Of a DNA stretch of 64,000 bases, positions 39,262-45,395 are shown piece by piece. The translations under genes and the position numbers were made by a program. The notes under the pieces were generated by a model that was not told the DNA's origin, did no database searches, and worked only from the letters and a program-made list of their open reading frames with translations. Location of the stretch: NCBI RefSeq assembly GCF_013315695.1, contig NZ_CP054353.1; one strand, 5' to 3'. Source of the DNA: Escherichia coli (lineage in GTDB: Bacteria > Pseudomonadota > Gammaproteobacteria > Enterobacterales > Enterobacteriaceae). Positions within the stretch are counted from its first letter, which is position 1. Each line of letters starts with the position of its first letter.

Positions 39262-40257
39262 GTGACTGTGAGAGCACTACTGACCCCTGAAATTGCCCCG
39301 CGTATGGGGATCGTATTGTTCAGGCCAGGTTCAGAGCTGATGCCCCTGTTTATGCAGGGGCGTGTCCTGCTGGAGCCTGAGCCGGAGCGTTATTCATCTT
39401 TCGCCAGTGGTGCCGTTCCGGCGGCATCACAACCGCTGGCGGATGATCCTGCCGTTCGGGCCGTGTTCCGCCATGAGGCAGTGATCCGTCGTGCTGGTGG
39501 CGTGGAATGTCTTGAAAGCTGGTTACTTCGTGAAAAAGGCTGCCAGTGGCCTCATTCCGGATGGCACAGCGAGAACATGACCACAATGCGACACGCTCCG
39601 GGTGCAATCCGTCTGTGCTGGCACTGCGATAACCAGCTGCGCGATCAGTTCACGGAACGGCTGGAATCAATGGCAACGGATAACTGTGCCCGCTGGGTGT
39701 TGTCTGTTGTGCGTCGGGATCTCGGTTTTGATGACAGTCACGTTGTGACAATGCCGGAACTGTGCTGGTGGCTGATTCGTAATGACCTGGCGGATGCCTT
39801 ACCGGAAAGTGCAGCCCGTAAGGCACTGAGATTACCGAAGCCTGTTGTGCCGTCTGTCACCCGGGAAAGTGACCTTGTGCCTTCGGTTCCTGCCACCAGC
39901 ATCATCCAGGATAAAGCGAAAAAGGTGCTGGCGCTGAAAGTGGATCCGGAGTCGCCGGAGTCTTTTATGTTACGCCCCAAACGTCGCCGCTGGGTTAATG
40001 AAAAGTACACGCGCTGGGTTAAGACGCAGCCGTGTGCATGTTGTGGAAAGCCTGCTGATGATCCCCACCACCTGATAGGCCACGGTCAGGGGGGAATGGG
40101 TACAAAAGCGCATGACCTCTTCGTGCTGCCTTTGTGCAGAAAGCATCACGACGAGCTGCATGCGGATACCGTGGCATTTGAAGAGAAGTATGGCTCCCAG
40201 CTGGAGCTGATATTTCGTTTTATCGATCGTGCGCTGGCAATAGGCGTGCTGGCCTGA
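39262..40257 (+). CDS. DUF968-like protein (YdfU-like)
   Basis: 331-aa ORF (GTG start) with C-terminal cysteine/histidine cluster CACCGKPADDPHHLIGH...CRKHHDELH. Confidence 0.5.
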   Translation: MTVRALLTPEIAPRMGIVLFRPGSELMPLFMQGRVLLEPEPERYSSFASGAVPAASQPLADDPAVRAVFRHEAVIRRAGGVECLESWLLREKGCQWPHSGWHSENMTTMRHAPGAIRLCWHCDNQLRDQFTERLESMATDNCARWVLSVVRRDLGFDDSHVVTMPELCWWLIRNDLADALPESAARKALRLPKPVVPSVTRESDLVPSVPATSIIQDKAKKVLALKVDPESPESFMLRPKRRRWVNEKYTRWVKTQPCACCGKPADDPHHLIGHGQGGMGTKAHDLFVLPLCRKHHDELHADTVAFEEKYGSQLELIFRFIDRALAIGVLA

Positions 40258-40259
40258 TT

Positions 40260-40646
40260 TTGTGGAGAAAGTTGATGCGTGATATTCAAATGGTTCTTGA
40301 ACGTTGGGGGGCATGGGTGGCAAATAATCACGAGGATGTGGAATGGTCATCTGTTGCTGCAGGTTTTAAGGGATTAATTCCTTCGAAAGTAAAATCCCGC
40401 CCGCAATGTAGCGATGACGATGGCCTGATCATTAGCTCTGCGATGACAGTTCTTAAGAAAAAGGAACCGTATCAATACGAATTACTGGAAATGTATTATG
40501 TGTATGGGGTTACATTACGGGTGTTGGGGGTAAAACTGGGGATATCACTTAATCAGGTTGTTATCAGACTGCAGAAAGCTGAAGGGTTTATTGACGGTTG
40601 TCTGGCAATGTTGGGGGTATCTTTAGAAATTGATTGTTACATATAG
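40260..40646 (+). CDS. late-gene antiterminator Q
   Basis: 128-aa ORF resembling the short Q proteins of E. coli cryptic prophages (QuuD-like); true start may be MRDIQMVLERW at 40275; sits directly upstream of the late region. Confidence 0.7.
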   Translation: MWRKLMRDIQMVLERWGAWVANNHEDVEWSSVAAGFKGLIPSKVKSRPQCSDDDGLIISSAMTVLKKKEPYQYELLEMYYVYGVTLRVLGVKLGISLNQVVIRLQKAEGFIDGCLAMLGVSLEIDCYI

Positions 40647-40685
40647 TAATAAATTCAATCAAAGTAAATAATCATATTTTATTAT

Positions 40686-40718
40686 AACCTCCTGATGATA
40701 CCTGTTCATTGGGAGGTT
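40686..40718 (+). promoter_or_regulatory. RBS-sequestering hairpin upstream of the 214-aa cargo gene
   Basis: aacctcc(40686-40692) pairs with ggaggtt(40712-40718), which contains the GGAGG RBS for the ATG at 40722. Confidence 0.45.
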
Positions 40719-41339
40719 ATTATGGATAAAAATGTAGAGCATGTATTAGTTGATGCAATTGAAAATAAGCAATCTTTAACAGTCGTTTACTTAGGAGGGA
40801 GCCAGCCCGGAACATTAAGGAATATTTCTCCGATTAGTATAAATGGGGATAAATTGCGGGCAAGATGCCATAGTTCTGGAGCAGTAAAGGTTTTCAATCT
40901 TGGGAAAATACAGTTACCCAGTGACTCCTGCGCGGTATCTATGCACTATGGAGATTTAGAAGTTAAAGCTTATGAGACGATGCAGAGCGTAAATGACAAC
41001 TTTCATGCCCTTTATCCTGAAGGACGATGGGGTGTTGATTTTAATGAGCATCGCTTTGCTTTATTTGATTTTTTTAAAAACGGGAAACGAAAAAAAACGG
41101 CATTTATGGCAATTGAGTTCAGGGAAAGAGATGAAGAGAAAATAATAACAGGTGTAACAATTGATATTGGTATATCTGGAACAGTGATTTCTGAGAAGTC
41201 CCGAATCCCAAAAAGACGACCATGGGTAGTGGTTGGTCCCGAACACGGAGAATACAGTACTTATTCAACTTTGGACAAGGCTGCTACAGCGTTTTTTGAG
41301 AGGCTTTCGTTGATAGCATCCGGCCTGGAAGATAATTGA
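40695..41339 (+). CDS. hypothetical cargo protein downstream of Q, family not recognised
   Basis: 214-aa ORF, AT-rich; probable start MDKNVEH at 40722 preceded by a GGAGG RBS; segment YLGGSQPGTLRNISPISINGDKLRARC...FNLGKI could be a small beta-barrel ligand-binding domain. Confidence 0.5.
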   Translation: MIPVHWEVIMDKNVEHVLVDAIENKQSLTVVYLGGSQPGTLRNISPISINGDKLRARCHSSGAVKVFNLGKIQLPSDSCAVSMHYGDLEVKAYETMQSVNDNFHALYPEGRWGVDFNEHRFALFDFFKNGKRKKTAFMAIEFRERDEEKIITGVTIDIGISGTVISEKSRIPKRRPWVVVGPEHGEYSTYSTLDKAATAFFERLSLIASGLEDN

Positions 41340-41468
41340 TTTTATGTTTGGTATTCAGAGTTCGCCGTGCTTAAGAAAGTCAAGATTCTAAAAATACTGA
41401 ATGAGCTACTTGTGTTATAACAAAAATGCTATTAGTGTGTTAAGAGTGGTTACTTCGCCACACAACTT

Positions 41469-41494
41469 AAACCCGCCACTGAGCGGGTTTTTTG
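41469..41494 (+). terminator. rho-independent terminator
   Basis: acccgc-cactga-gcgggt stem-loop followed by TTTTTT. Confidence 0.75.
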
Positions 41495-41617: not shown

Positions 41618-41815
41618 ATGCTGAAACAGCAGGATATGACAGAAACCGCCAGAGTTGTGTTTGATGAATTAAGCGTTACCGAACCGGCGACAGTCGGGGA
41701 GATTGCGCAGAATACTTACCTTTCACGCGAACGCTGCCAGTTAATACTGACCCAGCTTGTTATGGCGGGTCTGGCAGACTATCAGTGCGGTTGTTACAGA
41801 CGCCTTCAGTCCTGA
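41618..41815 (+). CDS. small winged-HTH-like regulator
   Basis: 65-aa ORF; PATVGEIAQNTYLSRERCQLILTQLVMAGL resembles a PapI/FaeA-like winged helix. Confidence 0.4.
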   Translation: MLKQQDMTETARVVFDELSVTEPATVGEIAQNTYLSRERCQLILTQLVMAGLADYQCGCYRRLQS

Positions 41816-41949: not shown

Positions 41950-42663
41950 ATGGCTGTTGTCTGTTCAGTTATCATGGTTTGCTCCCCAATTAATATTTTT
42001 CTTGAAAAGGATACGTTGTCACTTAAGCCAGGCTCAGTTGTTCTGGCCACCAAATGCATCAGGGAGCTTTTCCTTATGCATTATGGCAAAGTTAAAATTG
42101 TCGATATAAGCGAATCCGTCGTAAGTCAATATCTGGAAAGTCAGCATAAGCTGACGAGGACTCGTCTGACTGACATTCCGCTTTACCTGTTGCTGGAACC
42201 CAACAATCCTGCGTTGGCTGCGGCTTTAATTACCAGCCAGGGATTTTCCGGAGAGGCCACGGATATGTTTCTTATGATGGCCTGCCTGTCTCTGTTTGAA
42301 ACAGATGAACGGATGTCATTGTTTTTAAGTGGATGTTTATCCAGCATAAGTGCCAAAGTCAGGGCGATAATTCAGACAGATATATCAGCAAGCTGGACGC
42401 TTGGTGCGATTGCTCTACAGTTGCATATGAGTGAGAGTTTGTTAAAGACAAAACTGAAAAATGAAGGGGGCATGTTCAGTCGCTTGTTGCTGGAAGAGCG
42501 GATGCGTGTTGCTGTAAATATGTTATGTTCCCGGCATGGATATGGACAGGCTATAGCAGAAAAATGCGGTTATTCAAGCAGGTCCTACTTTATTTCTGTA
42601 TTTCACCGCTATTATGGCTTCCCGCCAGACAGATATGTATCCAGGCAAGGGCTTGATTATTGA
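41950..42663 (+). CDS. AraC-family transcriptional regulator
   Basis: 237-aa ORF with C-terminal AraC-type dual HTH (WTLGAIALQLHMSESLLKTKLK ... IAEKCGYSSRSYFISVFHRYYGFPP); AT-rich. Confidence 0.7.
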   Translation: MAVVCSVIMVCSPINIFLEKDTLSLKPGSVVLATKCIRELFLMHYGKVKIVDISESVVSQYLESQHKLTRTRLTDIPLYLLLEPNNPALAAALITSQGFSGEATDMFLMMACLSLFETDERMSLFLSGCLSSISAKVRAIIQTDISASWTLGAIALQLHMSESLLKTKLKNEGGMFSRLLLEERMRVAVNMLCSRHGYGQAIAEKCGYSSRSYFISVFHRYYGFPPDRYVSRQGLDY

Positions 42664-42691: not shown

Positions 42692-42767
42692 GGCCCTTTA
42701 GCTCAGTGGTGAGAGCGAGCGATTCATAATCGCCAGGTCGCTGGTTCAAATCCAGCAAGGGCCACCA
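42692..42767 (+). tRNA. tRNA with CAU anticodon (Ile2/Met-type; ileZ-like)
   Basis: Cloverleaf GGCCCTT-TA-GCTCAGTGGTGAGAGC..anticodon loop TTCATAA..GGTTCAAATCC..AAGGGCC-A-CCA. Confidence 0.85.
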
Positions 42768-42774
42768 TCACATA

Positions 42775-42851
42775 CCGCCATTAGCTCATCAGGATAGAGC
42801 GCCAGCCTTCGAAGCTGGTTGCGCGGGGTTCGAGTCCTCGATGGCGGTCCA
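42775..42851 (+). tRNA. tRNA-Arg (anticodon UCG; argN-like)
   Basis: Acceptor CCGCCAT/ATGGCGG, anticodon loop CTTCGAA, T-loop GGTTCGAGTCC, encoded CCA. Confidence 0.8.
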
Positions 42852-42864
42852 TTATCTGTACCCT

Positions 42865-42941
42865 GCGTTATTAGCTCAGCCGGACAGAGCAATTGCCTTC
42901 TAAGCAATCGGTCACTGGTTCGAATCCAGTACAACGCGCCA
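42865..42941 (+). tRNA. tRNA-Arg (anticodon UCU; argO/argU-like)
   Basis: GCGTTATTAGCTCAGCCGGACAGAGC..anticodon loop CTTCTAA..GGTTCGAATCC..CGCCA, close to host argU. Confidence 0.8.
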
Positions 42942-42980: not shown

Positions 42981-43433
42981 AAATGTCTCACAATTCAGAC
43001 GGTTGACAGTTGTCTGTTTTGCGGGGAGTTTGTTAAAAGAAACTGGCATGGTGAATCCCCCTGTGCGGAGGGGCAATCAGCAACTGGTGTTTTGTCACCG
43101 ACCCTTATCCTTTCTGTGCGGGTTCAGGTGCTGATACTGAACTCACCGGGAGGCACCCGGCATCATGTGCATGATGATACAGATACGCGGCTTTAGCCCC
43201 TCTCCGGAGGGGCTTTCTTGTGGGCAAAAAAAAGCCCGAGTGGGTTCGGGCAACAGCATGAGATATACATTTTTATAATCGAATGGATTTTAACCAGAAT
43301 TCATAAGGCTGCGCAACTGCGCGGTCTTTTTCGAATTGCGGGCTGTCGTCTCTCTTCTGCCATTGTCCTGTAACTTCCGGACTTCAGCCCGCTCCTTATT
43401 TTACTCACAATATTATCCCGGCCGGGAGGATTC

Positions 43434-45395
43434 ATGGCATTTAAACACTATGACGTGGTCAGGGCGGCATCGCCGTCAGACCTTGCGAAACGACTGACAC
43501 AAAAACTGAAGGAGGGGTGGCAGCCATTTGGCAGTCCGGTGGCCATCACGCCTTATACCCTGATGCAGGCCATTGCGGCGGAAGGTGATGTCACCACACC
43601 TGTGGTGGTGAAGCCGTCGGATGGAGAAGGCGCAGTTATCAGCAACACCAGCAACCCGGAGTATTACTTTGTTGTTGCCCTGGCCGGGCAGTCAAACGGT
43701 ATGGCGTATGGTGAAGGGCTTCCGCTGCCGGAGACATATGACCGTCCGGACCCGCGTATTAAACAGCTGGCGCGTCGCAGCACTGTCACGCCGGGTGGTG
43801 CGTCCTGTAACTACAATGACATTATTCCTGCGGACCACTGCCTGCATGATGTTCAGGATTTGAGTAAGTTTTCACACCCGAAAGCCAGCGCAGCTCAGTA
43901 TGGATGCGTGGGGCAGGGATTACATATCGCGAAGAAATTGTTGCCGTTTATTCCGGCGAATGCCGGTATTCTTCTGGTTCCGTGCTGCCGTGGTGGTTCT
44001 GCATTTTTGGCGGGCGATGAAGGTACCTTCAGCGAATCCACCGGCGCAAGCGAGACCTCGGCACGCTGGGGTGTAGATAAGCCACTGTACAAGGACCTGC
44101 TTACCCGTACTCAGGCCGCACTGAAGGCCAACCCTAAAAATATTCTGCTTGCAGTGGTCTGGATGCAGGGCGAGTTTGATTTGAAACAGGGTGCATACGC
44201 CACTCAGCCGGGGCTGTTTGATTCCATGGTGGAAAAATATCGTTCTGACCTGTCGGAATTCGGAGGTCAGTGTCTCGGGGGCTCTCCGTCATCAGTTCCC
44301 TGGATTTGTGGCGACACGACCTACTACTGGAAGCAGACTTATTCTTCGCAATACGATGCGGTGTATGGTGCATATAAGACGAAATCCGCAAAAAAAATCT
44401 TCTTTGTGCCGTTTATGACGGATGAAAACGGGCGAAATGTGGGTACCAACGAGCCGTCAGAAGATCCGGATGTTGCGGATATTGGGTATTACGGAGCCGG
44501 TGGTCGAACGGACGCCAAAACCTGGACGACGGCTGACCGTAAAACGCATTTTGGATCATGGGCACGTCGTGGGATTATTTCCGACCGTCTGGCAACGGCG
44601 ATTCTTGTGCATGCCGGGAGAACCGCTGAATTCATTACCGGAAAACAGCCTGATACGGTGAAGCCCACCGGACCTTCCGGTGAAGGTACGGAGAGAGAGC
44701 CGGAAGGTCCGGTCAGTAACCGAACCCTGATGAGTCTGCTGGCGTCCGGCGAAGACCTGGCATCACAGGGCTGGCGCTATTATCACAAACCGGCGAGCGG
44801 AGACAATGTTAACAAAAACATTGCTGAAGCGGTGGTCAGTGATGCGGGGGCTACGGGAGGTAAGGCCCTGCAACTGAATAAACCGGAAAACCACATCTGG
44901 TTTCTGGAGCATGATGCAGCCGGGCAGGGGGCAGAGTTGCTGAAGAAAGGAGGACGTGTGAGCGTACGGTTTAAGTTGCCGGGTTCACTGGTGCCGAATC
45001 AGTTTGCCCTGGGCATTTACTGGCAGTTGTCGTCCCTGCCGGAGGGAGTGACGCTGGCAGAGGAAGGCAACGACATGCTGATGTCCTTCTTTCTGCAGAC
45101 GGATGCGACGAACCTGAACGCGATGCACCACAAGAAGCCGAATGCGAAGCTGGAAACGTTCGGGGTCTTTGATAACGGATGGCACACACTGGCTTTTGAG
45201 TTTGCCGGAAACAACAGCATTCAGGTGACGCCGGTACTGGATGAGAAACGGGGGACGCCGTTCACACTGGTGAAATCTCCGGCATCAGGGGCGGCGGACA
45301 AACTGCAACTGACAGGCATATCAAAGGCGGCGACATATACGCTGCTGATTGACAGTGTGAAGGTGGAAGTGAACAACGCGGATGCCGCGGCATGA
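43434..45395 (+). CDS. nanS-p: prophage sialate O-acetylesterase (NanS-p-like)
   Basis: 653-aa ORF; position and sequence recalled as the esterase found downstream of stx in Stx phages. Confidence 0.65.
   Translation: MAFKHYDVVRAASPSDLAKRLTQKLKEGWQPFGSPVAITPYTLMQAIAAEGDVTTPVVVKPSDGEGAVISNTSNPEYYFVVALAGQSNGMAYGEGLPLPETYDRPDPRIKQLARRSTVTPGGASCNYNDIIPADHCLHDVQDLSKFSHPKASAAQYGCVGQGLHIAKKLLPFIPANAGILLVPCCRGGSAFLAGDEGTFSESTGASETSARWGVDKPLYKDLLTRTQAALKANPKNILLAVVWMQGEFDLKQGAYATQPGLFDSMVEKYRSDLSEFGGQCLGGSPSSVPWICGDTTYYWKQTYSSQYDAVYGAYKTKSAKKIFFVPFMTDENGRNVGTNEPSEDPDVADIGYYGAGGRTDAKTWTTADRKTHFGSWARRGIISDRLATAILVHAGRTAEFITGKQPDTVKPTGPSGEGTEREPEGPVSNRTLMSLLASGEDLASQGWRYYHKPASGDNVNKNIAEAVVSDAGATGGKALQLNKPENHIWFLEHDAAGQGAELLKKGGRVSVRFKLPGSLVPNQFALGIYWQLSSLPEGVTLAEEGNDMLMSFFLQTDATNLNAMHHKKPNAKLETFGVFDNGWHTLAFEFAGNNSIQVTPVLDEKRGTPFTLVKSPASGAADKLQLTGISKAATYTLLIDSVKVEVNNADAAA

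Follow-up and report, generated by a model that had tools for sequence, protein, structure and literature searches.

What does the gene directly downstream of the antiterminator gene Q encode in this Escherichia coli prophage, and is it expressed in the lysogen or at prophage induction? The window, which is the whole stretch of 64,000 nucleotides analysed here, represents an E. coli lambdoid prophage, and an earlier note on it had read the gene as late cargo in an stx-equivalent position, switched on by Q. WYL domains, of which the encoded protein carries one, are mainly understood as ligand switches wired to helix-turn-helix (HTH) domains, in regulators of bacterial DNA-damage and defence operons, and it is well established that phages carry hotspots of antiviral systems (PMC9122126). 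Here, the gene, its protein, the position of the late promoter and the cargo slot are considered in turn, and the possible functions are weighed against them.

The gene and its prophage setting

The features referred to in this paper are as follows.

39262-40257, + strand: DUF968/HNH gene
40275..40646 (alternative start 40260), + strand: Q antiterminator gene of the Q21 family (phrog_79, E 2e-44)
40680..40685, + strand: possible own -10 hexamer TATTAT of the candidate gene, immediately upstream of the hairpin 5' arm
40684..40720, + strand: 5'-UTR hairpin with a 15-bp stem (40684-40698 pairs with 40706-40720)
40695/40722-41339, + strand: open reading frame (ORF) of the candidate gene, directly after the Q gene (40260/40275-40646)
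40722..41339, + strand: coding sequence of the 205-aa protein (WYL domain 1-65, linker 66-84, alpha-beta(5)-alpha domain 85-205)
41090..41097, + strand: A8 homopolymer within the codons of the conserved KNGKRKK loop, a frameshift-prone site
41410..41438, + strand: inferred late promoter pR' (-35-like TTGTGT 41410-41415, A-run, -10 hexamer TAGTGT 41433-41438)
41413-41422, + strand: proposed Q-binding element, the 10-bp palindrome TGTTATAACA, proposed from its co-variation with the Q helix
41439..41494, + strand: conserved initial transcribed region GTTAAGAGTGGTTACTTCGCCACACAACTTAAA and terminator tR' (hairpin 41469-41490, U-run to 41494)
41618-41815, + strand: 65-aa ORF (phrog_331)
41950-42663, + strand: AraC-family regulator of 237 aa, YdeO/GadX-like
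42692-42941, + strand: three tRNAs, followed by sRNA matches
43434-45395, + strand: SASA/NanS-p esterase, followed by lysis and packaging genes

The ORF was confirmed as the first after Q on the + strand. Its start codon is ATG 40722, with GGGAGG 5 nt upstream. Since the PHROG profile and the PGAP annotation both start at this position, the protein has 205 aa, and the length of 214 aa given previously has to be corrected; upstream of 40722 just 9 codons are in frame, and they lie inside the 5'-UTR hairpin. The gene is indeed AT-rich compared with its flanks, as had been noticed, with a GC content of about 39% vs 54-58% for the DUF968 gene before it and 45-50% for the sequence after it. The GC content is equally low in the 3' half of Q, which travels with the candidate gene: homology of Q to other Q alleles stops inside the gene, near 40420-40436, and the AT-rich 3' half corresponds to an allele-specific recognition helix (...GISLNQVVIRLQKAEGFIDG...). 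The Q gene, named 'antiterminator Q family protein' by PGAP, matches the Q21 structures in the PDB (6p18/6jnx) with an E-value of 6e-10 over its N-terminal half. In the matching record the prophage repressor gene lies far upstream of the candidate gene; this distance from the prophage's own repressor is an observation that counts against the lysogen-associated function proposed below.

Comparison with a 71%-identical allele gave a dN/dS of 0.23 at a dS of 0.82, and by this measure the candidate gene is coding and under purifying selection. It was found in 69-71 of 5426 complete E. coli genomes and in 48 viral contigs, and the 2.5 kb around it are 100% identical to several complete genomes, mostly of human isolates. 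Alleles cut at or beside the A8 run occur in three viral contigs (L049, L051, L060), and many fragment clusters exist. Within E. coli the gene invariably follows the same Q allele; distant homologues are located elsewhere.

A WYL domain in an uncharacterised architecture

Scans of the single protein against Pfam, NCBIfam, PADLOC and PHROGs returned just a PHROG of unknown function (phrog_8498, E 3e-126) and WYL matches below threshold, with E-values of 0.067 for the Pfam model and 0.0012 for the PADLOC WYL model. The Pfam comparison that the earlier note had proposed as a check thus ended in a sub-threshold WYL match, and in no characterised structural or housekeeping phage family. At the family level the signal was clearer: the WYL profile scored E <= 0.001 in 11 of 90 members and E <= 0.1 in 46 of them, and the family profile searched against the PDB retrieved eight WYL proteins (E 1e-4 to 7e-3), including DriD and BrxR, and nothing else. 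The five-stranded Sm/SH3-like beta-barrel fold that marks PF13280 is present in the N-terminal segment. On the fold and the ligand residues the 205-aa protein belongs to the WYL domain superfamily, with borderline single-sequence significance. The by-eye impression of a small WYL-like beta-barrel in this segment was therefore borne out by profile and structural comparison. The domain call itself is not new, since UniProt B7ME76 and recent RefSeq records already bear the name 'WYL domain-containing protein'. The gene had been described as one that could be placed in no family, which stands insofar as none with a tested function matches, and is superseded by this database label. The family and its architecture are uncharacterised, and the sensor domain within them is a known one.

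The size of this family became apparent in an exhaustive search only, as a word-indexed homologue search recovered few relatives. About 490 clusters at 50% identity were obtained, and nearly all are stand-alone proteins of 185-210 aa; some members have an extra transmembrane helix, a second WYL domain or a 170-aa domain. In an alignment of 90 sequences Y23, G26, R33, A47 and K56 are invariant, and G25, P29, G30, P37 and F58 are nearly so. Further conserved positions in this alignment are the central K119-N120-G121 and the following K125 (consensus FKNGK), and, in the C-terminal part, P167 (consensus RPW), A187 and F191. Y23, G26 and R33 fall into the stretch that aligns with the ligand loop of DriD: Y168-E-G-G-S172-T-P-G-R176-T-R178 of DriD aligns with Y23-L-G-G-S27-Q-P-G-T-L-R33, so that the DriD ligand residues Y168, S172 and R178 equal Y23, S27 and R33 of the 205-aa protein. 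K56 and F58 plausibly correspond to R204 and W206 of DriD. It was reported that these loop residues of DriD hydrogen-bond the backbone of single-stranded DNA (ssDNA), of which 3-4 nt are held, and that the exchanges Y168A or R176A/R178A abolish activity (PMC9186387); CapW binds ssDNA in the same way (PMC11662680). As judged from the alignment, the N-terminal WYL barrel keeps the DriD-type residues for the phosphate backbone of ssDNA.

The domains that flank the WYL domain in canonical regulators were both looked for and were both absent. An N-terminal winged HTH (wHTH) is not present, as one 12-residue helix precedes the barrel and the WYL domain begins at about residue 5, and the Pfam, NCBIfam and PHROGs scans of the protein yielded no HTH family. 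Behind the WYL domain there is no WCX or dimer domain; a search with the C-terminal domain alone yielded no WYL protein, and WYL proteins align with the predicted model over 71-83 residues only. The protein is thus not a member of the wHTH-WYL-WCX regulator family. It is a cytoplasmic protein of two domains and, to go by the conserved residues, probably a single-stranded-DNA sensor that has no DNA-binding head.

The C-terminal domain (residues 85-205) is an alpha-beta sandwich with a low-confidence loop (134-167) and no close solved relative. Foldseek searches of AFDB50 located it behind BRCT domains in Salmonella and Citrobacter and behind SWIM domains in alpha-proteobacteria (E 1e-5 to 2e-4); the profile search with this domain missed these fusions, so Foldseek is their source. 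Based on them, the domain looks like a shared output or adaptor module placed behind different nucleic-acid sensors. Structural matches to frataxin/CyaY or a PsiB-like alpha-beta sandwich were at noise level, and Pfam gave no PsiB signal. The 90-sequence alignment showed no conserved Asp, Glu or His in the domain that would hint at catalysis, and an effector activity is accordingly not evident. Toxin, signal-peptide and enzyme signatures were also lacking in the profile scans and the alignment of the 205-aa protein.

Compared with DriD, CapW, BrxR and PafBC, the protein shares the Y-x-G-G-S-x-P-G-x-x-R ligand loop, in which the essential Tyr and Arg are invariant, and the same arena of DNA damage and phage defence. 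It differs from them in that it is phage-encoded, has about 200 aa vs about 300 aa or more, and carries an unrelated alpha-beta sandwich in place of the WCX/dimerisation domain; as it also has no wHTH, it cannot bind an operator by itself. Two other WYL proteins are different again: WYL1, the accessory protein of Cas13d, has a ribbon-helix-helix partner domain, and in bacterial PIF1 the WYL domain is joined to a helicase core, whereas the gene studied here has neither a CRISPR nor a helicase context. Literature searches with the accession, the UniProt id and the PHROG number of the protein found nothing. A Gifsy-1 paper that names WYL does so in its reference list only, a review on jumbo phages amounts to the same, and both were set aside.

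The late promoter and expression of the gene

The gene had been assigned to the Q-dependent late promoter, with a terminator of its own. The evidence on this point comes from a conserved element of 55-80 nt, including the terminator. About 3700 of 5426 E. coli genomes and 228 phage records carry it, compared with about 70 genomes for the candidate gene. The element follows nmpC in DLP12 of K-12, two minus-strand genes in strain TUM1880, a CPBP protease gene in O157:H7 and a lipoprotein gene in strain MY203L1. In phages without cargo, all the sequence between the Q stop and the terminator amounts to about 100 nt: a palindrome is followed by an A/T run, then by a TAnnnT hexamer, the conserved segment and finally the hairpin, which is the canonical Q-pR'-tR' cassette. 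The TAnnnT hexamer occupies a fixed position in nearly all element-bearing loci, and the 71%-identical allele fully keeps TTGTGTTATAACAAAAA, the preceding 70 nt being deleted or scrambled. Phages with an unrelated Q have only the sequence from the terminator onward in common, and there it is a second, downstream terminator; specificity for the Q family is hence confined to the sequence before the hairpin.

To examine the palindromes, 161 non-redundant element-bearing loci were each paired with the nearest upstream Q gene of the Q21 family. The palindromes measure 8-14 bp and precede the conserved GTTAAGAGTGG by about 18-30 nt. On inspection of the tabulated pairs, the class of the Q recognition helix equals the class of the palindrome in 73 of 73 unique pairs, which form 7 classes; a regular expression that missed the GCGGTCCGC class scored 59 pairs, with none of 5000 shuffles above 37, and the association may be inflated by physical linkage. 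The pairs are:

Q helix CSDGxIGKRLQKAEG: palindrome region TTTACGTACGTAAA
Q helix KCSDGTIRKELQ: palindrome region GCGTACGC
Q helix KKDEKLIRIEIQMAEG: palindrome region GCGGTCCGC
Q helix ISLNQVVIRLQKAEG (this window): palindrome region TGTTATAACA
Q helix GISHTQILKRLQKAEG (phiP27): palindrome region GGAATTCC
Q helix EKCSEGKIRQ: palindrome region TTCGTTACGAA
Q helix LSEGMIRIK: palindrome region GCGTTACGC

For each class, the Q stop is separated from the element by 33-56 nt where there is no cargo and by 624-2938 nt where cargo is present. The variable cargo length within each class indicates that cargo was repeatedly exchanged while the pairing of Q and palindrome remained unbroken.

The palindrome of this window's class occurs in the window as a single copy, at 41413. 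The pairing of palindrome and helix, together with the adjacency to Q in phages without cargo, places pR' downstream of the candidate gene: pR' and the Q-binding element very probably lie at about 41410-41445, with tR' at 41469-41494. The tR' hairpin 41469-41490 folds with -20.1 kcal/mol (z -3.3), and an RNA of about 50 nt is predicted from pR' to tR' when Q is absent. An alternative layout with pR' right after Q and tR' at the conserved terminator was rejected, because in phages without cargo the unit from palindrome to terminator directly adjoins the Q stop. In Rfam the conserved element is not represented by a family; the only match was a weak one on the minus strand, to STnc130 (E 0.28).

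Q21 is known to recognise a repeat element located in pR' between its -35 and -10 hexamers (PMC6606751). In phage 21 itself the Q-binding element (QBE) is formed by TGAGCA direct repeats in this position, according to the papers on the Q21 structure; these repeats are not present here, consistent with the different recognition helix. In the Stx phages of strain Sakai, pR' directly follows Q and gives a 258-nt RNA, StxS (PMC7547250). StxS was considered as the same element and was set aside as an analogue only, in view of the different Q clade and of its 258 nt vs the roughly 50 nt predicted here. The DLP12 lysis operon was assayed with a regulatory fragment from -121 to +650 (PMC7918800), and the DLP12 literature gives indirect support only for a downstream pR'.

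With pR' downstream, Q-modified transcription would start after the candidate gene, and the predicted Q-dependent transcript would begin with the 65-aa ORF, followed by the AraC-like regulator and the tRNAs. The assignment of the gene to the Q-dependent late promoter is thus not supported, as the Q palindrome, -10 hexamer, transcribed region and tR' were placed at about 41410-41494, after its stop codon. The terminator noticed behind the gene is real, as the hairpin 41469-41490, but it is tR', and being common to about 3700 of 5426 genomes it is not the gene's own. In Stx phages, stx lies downstream of pR' and tR' and is Q-dependent (PMC7547250); the candidate gene, unlike stx, lies upstream of the inferred pR'. 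The position is accordingly not equivalent to that of stx, whose literal slot, from the tRNAs to nanS-p, is found further downstream and contains sRNA matches only and no stx gene.

How, then, would the gene be expressed? It begins 75 nt after Q in the same orientation, with no terminator between them, so that transcripts of the early operon can read through into it, and expression on induction by this read-through via Q is possible. The read-through RNA contains the 5'-UTR hairpin, in which an anti-SD CCUCC is paired with the SD GGGAGG (40711-40716), 5 nt before the start codon. The hairpin folds with -23 kcal/mol (z -3.1), and none of 200 shuffles folds as well. The diverged 71% allele keeps it, with four one-sided changes that preserve pairing and one mismatch, in a spacer that otherwise has an 11-nt indel and many substitutions. 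This conservation suggests that the hairpin masks the ribosome-binding site of the candidate gene on the read-through RNA.

No convincing sigma-70 promoter was found for the candidate gene. The AT-rich 75-nt spacer holds 7 promoter-like hexamers, compared with 6.6 expected from shuffled sequence, and its + strand match would begin transcription inside the ORF. The hexamer TATTAT has a weak -35 match and was not listed by the consensus promoter scan; at the aligned position the 71% allele reads TACAGT, in which T1, A2 and T6 are kept and the three middle bases differ. A transcript starting near 40692, about 7 nt past TATTAT, would omit the anti-SD arm, and such an RNA, being free of this arm, would be translatable. 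This two-transcript idea derives from two alleles only.

The cargo slot and the possible functions of the protein

The interval from Q to pR' is, in the loci compared, a cargo hotspot of Q21-family prophages that often holds defence systems. Of ten sampled slot proteins four match PADLOC: PD-Lambda-1, PDC-S20 (a KAP NTPase), HEC-04/an OLD-like ATPase and PDC-M53A. The NmpC porin, a CPBP protease, lipoproteins and pairs of membrane proteins are encoded in the slot as well. PADLOC-DB 2.0 has no model for the present family, and just its generic WYL accessory model matches (E 0.0012); as the neighbouring cargo matches defence models and the 205-aa protein itself does not, its link to defence is one of location. 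The expectation that genes in this slot are toxins, defence or host-modulation factors held in part: the cargo is accessory and the neighbours are often defence genes, but there is no toxin signature here. Most defence genes of the slot are encoded on the minus strand and have promoters of their own, and the candidate gene is co-oriented with Q, an observation that goes against a defence function.

As a variable accessory gene placed, in a lambdoid prophage, between Q and the lysis genes, it resembles stx and lc/nmpC (PA-2, DLP12), and nmpC of DLP12 is found in exactly this slot, with the conserved element following it. It also resembles the rexAB-type genes of lambda, in that distant homologues lie directly downstream of a repressor, and the defence hotspots of P2/P4, in that the slot holds PADLOC-recognised systems in sister prophages. 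In contrast to the rexAB and P2/P4 hotspot genes, it encodes a single small protein with no recognisable effector, and in contrast to the P2/P4 hotspots, this one lies between an antiterminator and its cognate promoter. A description of cargo between Q and its cognate promoter was not found in the literature, nor was one of the Q-helix/palindrome code, and prior description of either elsewhere is possible.

In at least five lineages, distant homologues (26-40% identity) follow immediately on a short repressor of the CI/C type that is divergent from cro or cox, and these include a P2-like order of C, WYL and int. One homologue neighbours an S24 repressor, another is near a serine integrase, and a further one precedes a lysis cassette. 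By analogy, these positions are typical of accessory genes expressed in the lysogen. The aligned repressors next to distant homologues have only a generic CI-type HTH, with no shared partner domain.

The explanation that we tentatively prefer, and hold to be somewhat less than an even bet, is that the protein may be a lysogen-associated, ssDNA-sensing factor of defence or exclusion, or one that signals to a partner. A protein associated with lysogeny would bind ssDNA produced by DNA damage or by a phage that infects or replicates, and the ssDNA would sit in the cleft between the WYL and C-terminal domains. The C-terminal domain would then exclude the invader or pass the signal to a partner, which in several other phages could be the short CI-type repressor immediately upstream. 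The gene would stand outside the Q-dependent late transcript and be expressed either by read-through via Q or by its own weak promoter. A bolder form of this proposal, which we consider rather unlikely, is that these proteins constitute a new class of phage-borne ssDNA sensors, in which a WYL domain is combined with an undescribed output domain, shared with BRCT- and SWIM-headed proteins, and which bind no operator, acting as a single-protein exclusion system or as a detachable repressor subunit (RecA-independent induction); the interval between Q21 and its promoter would then be a dedicated defence hotspot whose cargo is locked in linkage with the Q/QBE pair and shielded from phage transcription by the masked RBS.

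Two further explanations share a smaller part of the probability. One is that of a split WYL switch, in which an ssDNA-sensing subunit would act through a distinct HTH protein to adjust induction, or the choice between lysis and lysogeny, without the help of RecA; its HTH partner would be the adjacent short repressor elsewhere and Q, the AraC-like protein or the 65-aa protein here. Canonical HTH-WYL-WCX fusions do switch their HTH allosterically on ssDNA binding (PMC11662680, PMC9186387), and in at least five unrelated phage lineages the WYL gene is directly preceded, on the same strand, by that of an HTH repressor of 135-160 aa without S24 peptidase. However, these repressors have no common partner domain beside their generic CI-type HTH, the gene is unlinked from the prophage repressor gene in this window, and other homologues occupy unrelated positions; we regard this explanation as improbable. 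The other, to which we give an equally low chance, is an early lytic counter-defence or SOS decoy, co-transcribed with Q, that would sequester ssDNA or bind a host factor, for example RecA, so that the replicating phage does not trigger host WYL-controlled CapW-CBASS, BrxR-BREX or SOS. The gene's orientation and its place 75 nt after Q, with no terminator between, would suit such a decoy, as would a protein that has the ssDNA residues of the sensors de-repressing CBASS and BREX without their DNA-binding output. Against it stand the SD-masking hairpin, which argues against strong translation of the read-through RNA, the structural matches at noise level and the missing PsiB signal in Pfam, the position of distant homologues by a repressor or integrase, which is typical of the lysogen and not of early lytic growth, and the other cargo of the slot, which is defence and not counter-defence.

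The initial reading of the gene as Q-dependent late cargo, toxin-like or host-modulating and switched on at induction with its own terminator, has hardly any probability left: the gene is indeed the first ORF after Q, AT-rich, followed by an intrinsic terminator and preceded by promoter-like hexamers in its spacer, but those hexamers are about as frequent as expected (7 vs 6.6) and the + strand one would start inside the ORF, the element that co-varies with the Q helix and adjoins Q in phages without cargo comes after the gene, with TGTTATAACA only at 41413 in the window, the terminator is common to thousands of prophages, and the protein has no toxin, signal-peptide or enzyme signature. The remaining probability goes to something unforeseen.

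A lysogen-associated ssDNA sensor, as tentatively preferred here, would concern more than this prophage. A large and mostly phage-borne family that keeps the ssDNA pocket and has both flanking domains swapped would represent the sensor in a different circuit, on the phage side, and the 205-aa protein is a compact candidate for defence, exclusion or induction control in prophages of ExPEC and other E. coli. As the late promoter can be up to 3 kb from Q in Q21-family prophages, being the first gene after Q is an unsafe proxy for Q-dependence. The position of the promoter matters for predicting whether virulence or defence cargo is expressed in lysogens or upon induction only, and the one-to-one pairing of Q helix and palindrome provides a ready set of candidate orthogonal Q/QBE pairs.

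Cargo between Q and the inferred late promoter

The interval between the Q21-family antiterminator gene Q and its inferred late promoter (pR'), which in the window is occupied by the WYL gene (40722-41339, + strand), contains diverse cargo in other prophages, mostly on the minus strand (loci L081, L086, L130, L155, L162, L163, L194, L197, and others). The following cargo was found in this slot:

KAP NTPase (defence model PDC-S20)
OLD/Gabija-like ATPase with a Dcm-type methyltransferase
PD-Lambda-1-like protein, in phiP27
PDC-M53A
SDH-type protease
membrane-protein pairs
NmpC porin

Among the ten slot proteins sampled, six had no match to a defence model, and these could represent new systems. 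Insertion sequences were also observed in the slot. In two viral contigs, L032 and L061, an IS element is present together with the WYL gene, namely an IS1-type InsB-like ORF in L032 and an IS5-type transposase in L061, and the Q-to-pR' distances of 1570 and 1991 nt, respectively, result from these insertions. IS5 is likewise present in the slot of the K-12 prophage DLP12.

Sequence features in and around the WYL gene

The conserved KNGKRKK loop is encoded by codons that include a run of eight adenines (A8, window 41090-41097), and alleles cut at or beside this run were detected in several viral contigs (L049, L051, and L060) and in many database fragments; such alleles may reflect slippage-driven on/off variation or sequencing error. 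Upstream of the gene, a promoter-like site on the minus strand (TGAACA-16-TATAAT, 40681-40708, 10 of 12 matches) is directed back into Q and recalls an anti-Q promoter. The site lies across a palindromic hairpin and may be a mere by-product of the hairpin's symmetry.

Genes downstream of the inferred late promoter

Two genes downstream of pR' and its terminator (tR') are described here:

41618-41815, 65-aa ORF (phrog_331)
41950-42663, AraC-family regulator of 237 aa, just upstream of the tRNAs

The 65-aa ORF, a frameshifted homolog of which was named "TrmB family transcriptional regulator" by PGAP, is conserved across many prophages that differ in cargo and Q class, where it immediately follows the pR'/tR' element, and is likely the first late-transcribed gene. 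The best matches of the AraC-family regulator, far below the equivalog cut-offs, were the acid-resistance regulators YdeO and GadX, and the protein resembles Psr/PatE, regulators that EHEC prophages encode. Its gene would be one of the first under the control of the inferred pR'.

The tRNAs and nanS-p delimit the true stx slot, in which the window has no toxin gene. The slot contains the following matches, on opposite strands:

43017-43225, + strand, STnc100 sRNA, full-length (131.7 bits)
43229-43281, - strand, AsxR/AgvB-type anti-sRNA (63 bits, at the gathering score)

Q classes and their palindromes

Comparison of window 41410-41494 with loci L079-L198 revealed at least seven recognition-helix classes among the Q21-family Q proteins, and the distance from Q to the late promoter reaches 2.9 kb in these loci. 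Every class has its own palindrome, located upstream of a transcribed region and terminator common to all classes. These classes and their palindromes would form a natural set of orthogonal pairs of Q and Q-binding element (QBE).
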